Source of the DNA: Candidatus Izemoplasmatales bacterium
Lineage (GTDB): Bacteria > Bacillota_I > Bacilli_A > Izemoplasmatales > Hujiaoplasmataceae
DNA length: 24,818 nt
NCBI GenBank assembly: GCA_050177605.1
Contig: JBFXGX010000009.1
Coordinates: 1-24,818, forward strand
Direction: 5' to 3'
How positions within the stretch are numbered: the first letter of the stretch is position 1; each line of letters starts with the position of its first letter. Under the pieces are notes generated by a model. That model had not been told where the DNA came from and made no database searches. It saw only the letters and a program-made list of their open reading frames with translations. The translations under genes and the position numbers were made by a program. Of this stretch, positions 20,914-23,857 are shown piece by piece.

Positions 20914-22191
20914 GTGCCTATGGATAAACAATTAAAATATGATGTAGAGCGTGGGCTTGGTAAAGTTTATCGCTATTTAAAAGATAAAGATGATATACAA
21001 AAATATAAAGAAGATTTGGTTCATCTTCTTTTAAAAGATCAAACCTATGATTTCAACTTCGAAGGTTCGAAAGGGTTATACTTGTATGACTTAGTTCAAT
21101 TATTTAACGACCCTCTTGAGTTTTTACAACCGATTACCTCGAAATTCGACTCAAAAATACGATATACCTTATTTGTTCAACTGGCAGATTTGTTAGTATT
21201 ATTTCATCATGATTATAAAGAACTACGTATTATAGATAAAATAATATTGAAGTTTCATGAATTAATATCCAATAAAATATGGAGTAAAGATTCCCTTCTT
21301 AAAATAGACTATTTACTTATCGTGTTCTCTCAAAATTTGAGTAAAAAACAACTTTTGAAACAAATCATTTTGTGGCAGGAGCAGTTGCTAAAACATAAAA
21401 ATTGTTCGATTCAAGATTTTGGTTGGTCAATACACTACATAAACGAACGGATTCCTGGACTCATTCCTATGGATGAAAGACCAGAAAAACCGGGCGAACC
21501 AAGAACCTTTGAAAAGGCATTTAAATTCGCTTCTACTGAAGATTTTCATCAAAAAATATTCATTTTAGATGACCCTTTTGAACTTAAAAAGCTGATGGAT
21601 TTTATTTATTCGGCCAAGGATATCGATGAAAAAGTGTTAAGGAGATTATTCATGACTGTTTCCTTAACGATGAGCTCTTTTAACTATAAAAAGATAGATT
21701 ATCCTTGTATCGATACACAGATGTTATTATCTTTGTTTCATCAATATAGCGATCCTATATTGAAACAAATGACGTTAAAGCTAATGATCCAATATAGCGA
21801 TTTGCCTCAACGCTCCTTCGGGTATGAGTTATTAAATACATCATTTCATGCATATGGAATTGGATTTATTTTGAAAAGTTATCAAAAAAATGATAAAATG
21901 ACCCTTTTTAACTATGTGTATCATCTTGATTTTTCTAGAAACAATCATGATGTTATCACTGTAGTCAATTATTTCATGGATTTCTTTAAACACCACAAAT
22001 CCAATGAACTGAATGAACTATTGTTTGTCTTCTATGAACGAGGTGTTAGTTCATATAAAAGAGAAGAAATCGTCAAACTGATGGACAAAAAGAAACTTTT
22101 AACAATAAGTGATTATGAGGACTTATTGCATGATTCGAACCAAGACATTCGAAAACTTGCAAAAAAGGTTTATAGAAATTTAACTAAATAA
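20914..22191 (+). CDS. hypothetical all-helical protein, possibly HEAT-like
   Basis: Long uninterrupted ORF, Leu/Lys-rich, C-terminal LLHDSNQDIRKLA resembles a HEAT repeat end; true start may be ATG 20920. Confidence 0.7.
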   Translation: MPMDKQLKYDVERGLGKVYRYLKDKDDIQKYKEDLVHLLLKDQTYDFNFEGSKGLYLYDLVQLFNDPLEFLQPITSKFDSKIRYTLFVQLADLLVLFHHDYKELRIIDKIILKFHELISNKIWSKDSLLKIDYLLIVFSQNLSKKQLLKQIILWQEQLLKHKNCSIQDFGWSIHYINERIPGLIPMDERPEKPGEPRTFEKAFKFASTEDFHQKIFILDDPFELKKLMDFIYSAKDIDEKVLRRLFMTVSLTMSSFNYKKIDYPCIDTQMLLSLFHQYSDPILKQMTLKLMIQYSDLPQRSFGYELLNTSFHAYGIGFILKSYQKNDKMTLFNYVYHLDFSRNNHDVITVVNYFMDFFKHHKSNELNELLFVFYERGVSSYKREEIVKLMDKKKLLTISDYEDLLHDSNQDIRKLAKKVYRNLTK

Positions 22192-22213: not shown

Positions 22214-22244
22214 TTGACTCTCACCTTGGGGAAGATATTATAAT
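22214..22244 (+). promoter_or_regulatory. MerR-type promoter/operator (19-bp spacer)
   Basis: TTGACT (22214-22219), 19 bp, TATAAT (22239-22244); imperfect dyad TCTCACC-TTG-GGGAAGA (22219-22235). Confidence 0.8.
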
Positions 22245-22263
22245 TCAAAATGAGGTGAGATTG

Positions 22264-23118
22264 ATGAAACAAATAGGTGAATTTGCAAAAGAAAATAATG
22301 TCACAATTAAAGCACTACATCACTACGAAAAAATAGGGCTAATTTATCCTTCTTTTGTGGATGAAGAAACTGGATATCGATACTACTCAGAGAATGAAAG
22401 CAAAGAGTTAAAGTCGATTTTATTTCTTAAGGATCTAGGATTATCATTATCTGAAATTAAAGACATCAAAGAAAAGGACACAGACAAATCCAAACTCATT
22501 CAATTTTTTTCTCTTAAACTGAGACAAGCTACTAACGAAATTAATCTTACTTCAAAAAGAGTTTTTAAACTCAATAAAATCATTTCGAATATTACAAACA
22601 GTAATATCGAACAAAACAATTTGGAGGAGGTATTAATTATGTTAGAAAAAGAATTGGATACTGGAAAATATGGGCAAGGTAAATTCATTGAAGAAACAGA
22701 AAAATTATTTGAGAAGGCTTTAAGCAACCATACACCATTAAGTGTGATTGAACTAGATTTAGATTATTTCAAGGCCATCAATGATAATTATGGTCATGAT
22801 GCAGGAGATATTGTACTTCAAAGAACATGGGACAGTATTGTGAGTACACTACAAACATCGAAATACATTTCGACATTTGAAAGACGTGGGGGAGATGAAT
22901 TTACTGTGGTCGTTGAAGCAACCCCATATCAGGCATCGAAATTAGCCACAGATATTTTAAATAATGTGATCGACTGTGATTTTTCAGATATTCATGAGAA
23001 TCTTAAAATGAGTATGACTGCTGGGATCGCTGGTATCAGTAAAAAAAGAAATACATACCAACAATTACTTCAAGATGCGACCCTAGCAATGTATCAAAAT
23101 AAGAGAAATCGTAAGTAA
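22264..23118 (+). CDS. MerR-family regulator fused to a GGDEF (diguanylate cyclase) domain
   Basis: IGEFAK..NVTIKALHHYEKIGLI.P..VDEETGYRYY, LKDLGLSLSEIK (MerR); DLDYFKAINDNYGHDAGD and R.GGDEF (22888-22902); SD GAGGTG favours ATG 22264. Confidence 0.9.
   Translation: MKQIGEFAKENNVTIKALHHYEKIGLIYPSFVDEETGYRYYSENESKELKSILFLKDLGLSLSEIKDIKEKDTDKSKLIQFFSLKLRQATNEINLTSKRVFKLNKIISNITNSNIEQNNLEEVLIMLEKELDTGKYGQGKFIEETEKLFEKALSNHTPLSVIELDLDYFKAINDNYGHDAGDIVLQRTWDSIVSTLQTSKYISTFERRGGDEFTVVVEATPYQASKLATDILNNVIDCDFSDIHENLKMSMTAGIAGISKKRNTYQQLLQDATLAMYQNKRNRK
22639..23118 (+). CDS. predicted internal in-frame product: stand-alone GGDEF domain (159 aa)
   Basis: GGAGGAGG (22623-22630), 8 nt, in-frame ATG (22639) at the MerR/GGDEF boundary. 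Confidence 0.55.
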   Translation: MLEKELDTGKYGQGKFIEETEKLFEKALSNHTPLSVIELDLDYFKAINDNYGHDAGDIVLQRTWDSIVSTLQTSKYISTFERRGGDEFTVVVEATPYQASKLATDILNNVIDCDFSDIHENLKMSMTAGIAGISKKRNTYQQLLQDATLAMYQNKRNRK

Positions 23119-23164
23119 AAGAATGCTTATGAATTAAAAACGTCAACGAAGAAGAGGATAGGCA

Positions 23165-23857
23165 ATGAAAAGGATAGGATTAATCGGTGGAATGAGTTAC
23201 GAGTCTACCAAAGATTATTATGATATTATCAATAAAGAAGTCAATAAAATCTTAGGTGGAAGTCATAGCGCTGAAATCTATTTATATTCTTTTGATTACC
23301 AAGTTCTTGATGATTTTCTGCATCATGGAGGAATGGATCAAGTCTCAAAAAAGGTGAGTGAAGCAGCCATCAAACTTGAACAGGCTGGCGCAGAAATGAT
23401 TTTAATATTGGCGAATACAATTCATCTTGTTGCGGAAGATGTCAAGAAACAGATTCACGTTCCTTTGGTCCATATCGTCGAGTCGACACAAGAGGCGATT
23501 CATTCTTTAGGGATGAAGAAGGTTGGGTTACTTGGAACGAAGTTTACGATGGAAAGCAATCTTTATCCATCGATTTTGGAAAAGAGCGGAATTCGAGTTC
23601 TTATCCCTAGTAAGGAACAAAGGGATTTTATCCATCAAACCATTTATTTTGAACTCATTGTTGGAAAATTGCTTGAAAGTTCAAGAAAGAAATTCATCGA
23701 CATCATCGAAGATTTAACAAAACAAGGTTGTGAGGGAATTATTCTAGGGTGTACTGAAATCCCACTGTTAATCAAACAAGAAGACGTTCCTGTTCGAATT
23801 TTTAACACAACGAAAATCCATGCGTTGTCCGCTGTAAAAAAAGCATTTGAAGAATAA
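23165..23857 (+). CDS. aspartate/glutamate racemase family protein (YgeA/RacX-like)
   Basis: IGLIGGMS.EST..YY, ANTIH, GLLGTKFTM, ILGCTEIP. Confidence 0.9.
   Translation: MKRIGLIGGMSYESTKDYYDIINKEVNKILGGSHSAEIYLYSFDYQVLDDFLHHGGMDQVSKKVSEAAIKLEQAGAEMILILANTIHLVAEDVKKQIHVPLVHIVESTQEAIHSLGMKKVGLLGTKFTMESNLYPSILEKSGIRVLIPSKEQRDFIHQTIYFELIVGKLLESSRKKFIDIIEDLTKQGCEGIILGCTEIPLLIKQEDVPVRIFNTTKIHALSAVKKAFEE

Follow-up and report, generated by a model that had tools for sequence, protein, structure and literature searches.

Does a gene that fuses a MerR-type regulator to a GGDEF domain encode one protein or two? This question is raised by a MerR-GGDEF gene of a Candidatus Izemoplasmatales bacterium (assembly GCA_050177605.1), located on contig JBFXGX010000009.1, of which the first 24,818 nt were analysed and are as a whole called the window in the following. 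An earlier note on this DNA had proposed that, besides the full-length protein of 284 aa (long form), the gene provides a GGDEF-only protein of 159 aa (short form) by translation from an internal in-frame start, as known for TipAL and TipAS of Streptomyces. Comparison with homologous genes supports this two-protein reading by conservation of the internal Shine-Dalgarno (SD) sequence, of its spacing and of the start codon. We consider it likely that the internal start at 22639 is used, and the gene is probably a self-regulated two-product gene resembling that of TipAL/TipAS, its products being the full regulator and a GGDEF domain of 159 aa that is free.

The internal start site

The signal consists of the SD sequence GGAGGAGG (22623-22630), a spacer of 8 nt composed of A and T only, and an in-frame ATG at 22639, just as the earlier note had described it. 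The frame of this ATG is that of the open reading frame (ORF), as (22639-22264)/3 = 125, and the codon is that of Met126. Residues are numbered from ATG 22264, which is considered the true start of the long form because all 46 homologs in the alignment begin with MKxIG; the GTG at 22255 chosen in the ORF listing falls within the gene's own SD GAGGTG (22252-22257).

An AlphaFold2 model of the MerR-GGDEF protein was built on the 46-sequence alignment (mean predicted local distance difference test score (pLDDT) 84.8). Met126 is located within a short linker helix comprising residues 117-131, between a long helix (residues 75-112), which we take from knowledge of the MerR family to be the antiparallel coiled coil, and the GGDEF domain assigned by Pfam. 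The linker helix is followed by a low-confidence loop (residues 132-139, with pLDDT <50 at residues 134-137) and by the GGDEF fold, which spans residues 140-281. Model and Pfam thereby agree with the position claimed before, after the coiled coil and ahead of the GGDEF domain. From its residue 13 on, the predicted short form covers positions 12-158 of the 161 positions of the GGDEF profile (Pfam).

The further claims that the internal SD is better than the gene's own and that its codons are unusual were also confirmed. Pairing with a generic anti-SD sequence is predicted at -13.4 kcal/mol for the internal site and at -9.9 kcal/mol for the gene's own GAGGTG, and none of 802 positions of the coding sequence (CDS) pairs more strongly than the internal SD. 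GAG accounts for 17.4% of the Glu codons genome-wide (G+C content 34.4%) and for 4 of the 23 Glu codons of the gene outside the internal SD; Glu-Glu pairs are spelled GAGGAG in 81 of 3141 cases in the genome. One internal SD with an ATG in one gene proves nothing, and the signal within the genome is weak. The significance of the site derives from its conservation in relatives only.

Conservation among homologs and competing explanations

A protein search yielded 46 full-length MerR-GGDEF homologs of 283-299 aa with 33-57% identity, all of which have the fused architecture; those with names are from metagenome-assembled genomes labelled Izimaplasma or Bacilli. The column of the internal start holds Met in 40 of these homologs; of the other six, 4 have Leu and 2 have Val. 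Five columns before it, Lys occurs in 40 homologs, Glu in 5 and Arg in 1, and the column at -4 is Glu in 45 of 46. The codons were analysed in a DNA set of 16 family members from three clades, with pairwise protein identities of 26-74% and with duplicate loci counted once. The start column of these members reads ATG 14 times, and the single Leu and the single Val are encoded by TTG and GTG, respectively. Lys-Glu before the start is spelled AAG GAG in 11 of 11 members having these residues, while the window has GAG GAG. Conservation of SD and Met at synonymous positions had been set beforehand as the test of the two-protein reading, and these counts (Met in 40/46, AAG GAG in 11/11, ATG in 14/16) speak for it.

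At the homologous SD position, AAGGAG is thus present in 11 of the 16 genes, and four more contain GGA or GGG (AAA GGA in L012, AAG GGA in L013, AGG GGA in L184, AAG GGG in L186). Codons ending in G make up 0.93 and 1.00 of the two SD columns, as compared to 0.11-0.57 of 24 control Lys/Glu columns of the same alignment; codon use of the individual genes ranges from 7 to 67% for AAG and from 6 to 76% for GAG. By predicted pairing, the internal SD is comparable in strength to the own SD of each of the 16 genes. In 7 of the 16 it exceeds every other SD-like site of the CDS, and in 14 of the 16 at most 21 positions are stronger. In two more distant MerR-GGDEF genes (L172, L188), SD and Met are both absent at the homologous position; therefore, the MerR-GGDEF architecture alone does not force an SD with a start.

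The conserved AAGGAG/GGAGG could also be an SD-like element within the gene that slows elongating ribosomes at the domain border, with a structural role for the Met and no short protein. The MerR part could then fold or dimerise before the GGDEF domain emerges. The motif is positioned exactly between the two folding units of the AlphaFold2 model, K, E and M are conserved as residues, and the SD site is not predicted to be unusually open, all of which fits such a role. However, ribosome slowing leaves unexplained why the codon located 9 nt downstream is always start-capable (ATG 14, TTG 1 and GTG 1 of 16) and why the distance between SD and start is fixed. Also, in unrelated MerR fusions an SD with a start is specific to the reading frame (21 loci in frame, 1 and 1 in the other two frames; see below), as expected for initiation. 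SD-driven pausing in ribosome profiles is itself disputed as a technical artefact, which we counted against this explanation. Overall, we regard it as improbable.

Instead of arising by internal initiation on the full-length mRNA, a short form could furthermore be translated from a transcript of its own that starts at an internal promoter. A weak promoter-like site (TTCAAA-18-TAAAAT, 9/12 matches) is indeed present at 22551-22580, upstream of the internal SD. However, promoter-like sites in this region do not exceed the level of shuffled sequences (6 found, 6.4 expected), and a 9/12 match within 128 nt before the SD was detected in only 5 of 16 homologs, at differing positions. A conserved internal promoter was rejected on these grounds, and we give little credence to a separate transcript. 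Because no conserved internal promoter is found, one mRNA is the simplest source of both forms.

Little probability was also assigned to the view that the site is a decaying, functionless relic from the joining of a merR gene to a GGDEF gene that followed it. Such fusions leave an SD and an ATG behind, and the site is indeed located at the domain junction; the weakened SDs of L012, L013, L184 and L186 would also fit decay. On the other hand, the family is old, with protein identities down to 26%, and the other synonymous sites are randomised (0.11-0.57 G-ending versus 0.93 and 1.00 at the SD columns), which makes a relic unlikely at this divergence, and a relic would not persist in two classes of bacteria. 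Unfused relatives were not found. Stand-alone GGDEF proteins of 87-279 aa were at best 36% identical, with 1 match at E <= 1e-10 among 37 candidates. A search of 1.84 billion representatives for split relatives of the N-terminal 125 aa had fusions of 283-298 aa or apparent fragments of 77, 78 and 203 aa as its closest matches; complete short MerR proteins scored lower than the fusions. Separate merR and GGDEF genes in close relatives, named in advance as the case that would speak against a second start, thus did not turn up, and 46 of 46 homologs are fusions.

Finally, chance coincidence of an SD-like string and a Met codon, of which the genome offers comparable cases (in 1566 crude ORFs of >=120 aa, 11,289 ATGs are internal and in frame, and 48 of them follow a strong SD, defined as GGAGG or AAGGAG 4-11 nt upstream), is very improbable in view of the synonymous-site conservation across 16 divergent genes.

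Several points weigh against use of the internal start and temper our confidence. As this background count shows, the feature is not rare in a single genome. K, E and M belong to a predicted helix and are conserved there as residues as well. Their conservation may thus be partly structural, and codon choice is the only part of it that is specific to a signal at the RNA level. The codon counts are based on only 16 members, and the six homologs with Leu or Val among the 46 are outside this set. The TTG and GTG cases in the start column are just two, with a chance use of about 0.3 each. Four of 16 members have weaker SDs with GGA or GGG cores, and the sites of L184 and L186 come only 112th of 850 and 49th of 874, respectively. 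The naive joint probability of the G-ending SD columns, 1.6e-14, overstates the case because the sequences are kin. The predicted RNA accessibility of the SD-start site is ordinary (mean percentile 0.60) and thus uninformative. Also, poor cyclase activity is to be expected of a GGDEF domain that is free and cannot rely on a dimerising part.

The coordinates of the features are listed in Table 1.

Table 1. Features of the MerR-GGDEF gene and its promoter in the window.
Feature	Positions	Strand	Details and basis
MerR-type promoter of the gene	22214..22244	+	-35 TTGACT 22214-22219; -10 TATAAT 22239-22244
19-nt promoter spacer ctcaccttggggaagatat, presumed operator	22220..22238	+	sequence
Own SD GAGGTG	22252..22257	+	6 nt before ATG 22264; predicted pairing -9.9 kcal/mol
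MerR-GGDEF ORF (long form)	22264..23118	+	284 aa; ATG 22264, stop TAA 23116-23118; Pfam and homologs
MerR helix-turn-helix (HTH) DNA-binding domain	22273..22470	+	residues 4-69; Pfam PF13411 (E 1.1e-13), PF00376 (E 5.3e-10)
Long helix, presumed MerR dimerising coiled coil	22486..22599	+	residues 75-112; AlphaFold2 helix H75-112
Short linker helix with motif [KE]-E-[LIM]-[IL]-x-M	22612..22656	+	residues 117-131; AlphaFold2 H117-131 and column counts
Internal SD GGAGGAGG	22623..22630	+	codons TTG GAG GAG GTA; predicted pairing -13.4 kcal/mol
A/T-only spacer tattaatt	22631..22638	+	8 nt; read from sequence
Internal in-frame start codon ATG (Met126)	22639..22641	+	sequence; column conserved among homologs
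Predicted short-form ORF, free GGDEF protein	22639..23118	+	159 aa; Pfam GGDEF (E 1.5e-26), residues 13-158; translation inferred from conservation
GGDEF domain, RGGDEF at residues 208-213	22675..23112	+	residues 138-283; Pfam PF00990 (E 6.9e-26)

Promoter, GGDEF domain and proposed two-product model

Upstream of the gene, a promoter layout of the form TTGAC[ATC]-N19-TATAnT was found in 15 of the 16 members, 18-33 nt upstream of the start codon. It was not found at L183, where just ~80 nt of upstream sequence are present. A 19-nt spacer with a dyad is a hallmark of MerR-activated promoters. The spacers contain the dyad CTCC...GGAG in one clade and CCTTAC-GTAAGG in another, with perfect dyads in several members; no perfect dyad was found in the 19-nt spacer of the window's own promoter. 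A generic promoter scan joined the same -35 region to TATTAT instead, because it allowed only spacers of 16-18 nt. Judged from this layout with 19-nt spacer and dyad, the MerR-GGDEF gene is very probably its own target. Genes shared between the clades in the neighbourhood were not found, and thus no conserved regulon; the conserved promoter together with the non-conserved neighbours fits a minimal self-regulated unit, as for TipA.

Along its entire length, the GGDEF domain can be aligned with solved diguanylate cyclases, i.e. DgcB (6hbz, 3.6e-16), DosC, PleD and WspR (to 4e-12), and 34 solved GGDEF sequences match at E <= 1e-8. GGDE[FY] is present in 39 of the 46 members; the remainder have SGDE, AGDE, -GDE or GGDEC. 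All 46 homologs share residues D165, N173, D182 and K280, which presumably serve in metal and guanosine triphosphate (GTP) binding, roles that we assigned via PleD numbering. An RxxD inhibitory (I) site, which is common among GGDEF cyclases and not needed for membership, was not found five residues before the motif in any of the 46 members. Judged by its residues, the domain appears to be a functional GTP-binding cyclase domain that escapes inhibition by its product. A complex prediction for two GGDEF parts (residues 126-284) with GTP and Mg gave a score of 0.00, i.e. no answer, and was used for neither side. As a side observation, genome G000 contains 17 GGDEF-domain matches in 1.94 Mb (89% complete), which is many for its size.

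In the two-product model, one mRNA from the MerR-type promoter would give two proteins. The long form would comprise the MerR DNA-binding domain, the coiled coil, the linker helix and, to judge from its residues, a catalytically complete GGDEF domain. As a dimer it would bind the 19-nt-spacer promoter of its own gene and activate transcription when the GGDEF domain senses a signal, for which binding of GTP or cyclic di-GMP (c-di-GMP) or GGDEF-GGDEF pairing are candidates. The short form, translated from ATG 22639 with the internal SD, would consist of the GGDEF domain alone, released from the parts for DNA binding and dimerisation. Activation of the promoter would raise both forms, by analogy with TipAL/TipAS and AlbAL/AlbAS. 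In MerR dimers, the antiparallel coiled coil places the C-terminal domains at opposite ends. The tethered GGDEF domains might therefore not meet to form the two-domain active site. We favour the idea that free and tethered GGDEF would act on a common ligand or partner, the free one buffering the signal or pairing with the tethered one; designations of the short form such as 'sponge' or 'modulator' are guesses. If the short form is real, a c-di-GMP enzyme domain would exist in two states from one gene, DNA-tethered and free, and this from a compact unit of ~900 bp with one promoter, one mRNA and two proteins. Such a system could be used to study how a GGDEF domain can serve a transcription factor as its signal receiver, and whether the free and the tethered copy work together or against each other.

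The best precedent is the TipAL/TipAS system of Streptomyces lividans. The tipA gene is described as having two alternative start codons, with TipAS as the predominant form, and as a minimal autoregulated unit (PMC7762955). The second in-frame start follows the coiled coil and leads to a free C-terminal effector domain, according to two papers (PMC7762955, PMC6078987). The MerR-GGDEF gene shares with it an N-terminal MerR HTH and a coiled coil in one gene, a MerR-type promoter, and an internal SD with a start at the domain border, which are known here from sequence. Because a MerR-type promoter with 19-nt spacer is conserved in 15 of 16 members, the tipA parallel appears closer than the earlier note saw. 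In contrast, the C-terminal domain is GGDEF (PF00990) and not the antibiotic-recognition domain of TipAS (PF07739), for which no Pfam match was obtained in the MerR-GGDEF protein. The likely ligand is a nucleotide instead of a thiopeptide, and covalent drug capture or a role in resistance is not implied. By its domains the gene belongs to both the MerR and the GGDEF families. Lacking a TipAS domain, it falls outside the TipA class and only works, as we propose, like TipA.

A second MerR-family gene with a proposed full-length regulator and a short form is albA of Klebsiella oxytoca, for which AlbAL and AlbAS from two in-frame starts were proposed by analogy to TipA, the long form being dimeric and the short one monomeric; its authors state that the two species are still to be identified in vivo (PMC6078987). 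As described there, and unlike the short form proposed here, AlbAS is a tandem TipAS-like drug binder without an enzyme domain. An unfused precedent comes from Escherichia coli, where the MerR-like factor MlrA controls transcription jointly with DgcM and PdeR, i.e. with a GGDEF protein, as described in PMC3715855. MlrA and DgcM are encoded by separate genes, whereas here one polypeptide and probably a free GGDEF copy would be involved, and the likeness is at the level of domain families. Compared with DgcB (6hbz), DosC, PleD and WspR, the N-terminal partner is a DNA-binding MerR part and not a receiver, haem or PAS sensor. Going by family knowledge, the antiparallel coiled coil would separate the two GGDEF domains, unlike in sensor-linked cyclases.

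In line with the earlier note, no described GGDEF example of a two-product design was found by full-text search. This search also returned no paper on 'MerR-GGDEF' or 'HTH-GGDEF', and among the results listed by further literature searches none connected diguanylate cyclases to internal starts, with subscription journals outside the coverage throughout. A term search in a review on bacterial N-terminal proteoforms (PMC13515050) gave no occurrence of GGDEF, c-di-GMP, TipA or MerR, and in PMC13725321 the string 'MerR' occurs only within the author name Merritt. A two-state layout of tethered and free GGDEF was thus not found in the c-di-GMP literature searched.

Other MerR fusions, distribution and neighbouring genes

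From generic matches of the homolog and metagenome scans, 106 non-redundant MerR-family ORFs of >=180 aa were collected and scanned for ATG, GTG or TTG preceded by GGAGG or AGGAG. In-frame hits cluster at residues 100-129 (23 of 55 hits, 21 of 106 loci), with 14 hits in the 110-119 bin; in each of the other two frames, this range contains 1 locus. The loci concerned are L020, L042, L052, L060, L078, L090, L092, L094, L098, L102, L106, L109, L113, L116, L124, L134, L140, L151, L158, L164 and L166. Their C-terminal domains are GyrI-like in 13 cases, glyoxalase-like in 2, SAICAR synthetase in 1 and cobalamin adenosyltransferase in 1, and 4 have no Pfam match. In the GyrI-like group the start column again reads ATG, TTG or GTG, with GAG before it. 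At L052:2720-3955 and L060:2992-3915, an in-frame SD with a start precedes the enzyme domain, a complete SAICAR synthetase and a cobalamin adenosyltransferase, respectively; both may be either true fusions or two genes with a lost stop.

This pattern suggests that TipAS-like free domains are common in the MerR family. It is a lead and not a result, as many of the GyrI-like genes are related and the counts are uncorrected for phylogeny. With the signal in about one fifth of the sampled other MerR fusions, the pattern suggests that annotation systematically misses a second product, which may matter more than the locus itself. More speculatively, and with a good deal of doubt on our side, an internal start after the coiled coil could be a general, largely unrecognised design rule of MerR fusions that extends beyond TipA and AlbA. 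The freed C-terminal domains would then include GyrI-like, glyoxalase-like, ArsC and GGDEF domains and even a metabolic enzyme, a range that we propose just as tentatively. Applied to GGDEF, this idea would make the free domain the working partner of tethered domains that the antiparallel coiled coil keeps apart, and c-di-GMP synthesis, or sensing of c-di-GMP at the promoter, would be set by the ratio of short to long form.

The MerR-GGDEF gene was found in none of the 70 genomes representing the window's own family; a sister family has it in 7 of 77 genomes, and two families belonging to another class in 4 of 23 and 5 of 21. Such a patchy distribution suggests that the gene was transferred or repeatedly lost. 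A scan of metagenome contigs with MerR-end patterns gave generic MerR genes only and no additional full-length member, L089 being a fragment at a contig end. At L171 (G072:C8, reverse strand; in a 99%-complete genome of 10 contigs), a 1-nt frameshift in an A-run near codon 30 (LLLPKK...) severs the HTH, and the remainder of the ORF stays open, internal SD and ATG included. Either an assembly error at the homopolymer or true loss of the long form may underlie the frameshift.

Downstream of the MerR-GGDEF gene follows an ORF of the Asp/Glu racemase family (23165-23857). The gap of 46 nt (23119-23164) is without a terminator-like site, and the two genes may be co-transcribed; this neighbour is not conserved at the homolog loci. 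Upstream lies an ORF of 425 aa (20914-22191, + strand), which has no Pfam match and itself contains an in-frame AAGGAG with an ATG at codon 247.

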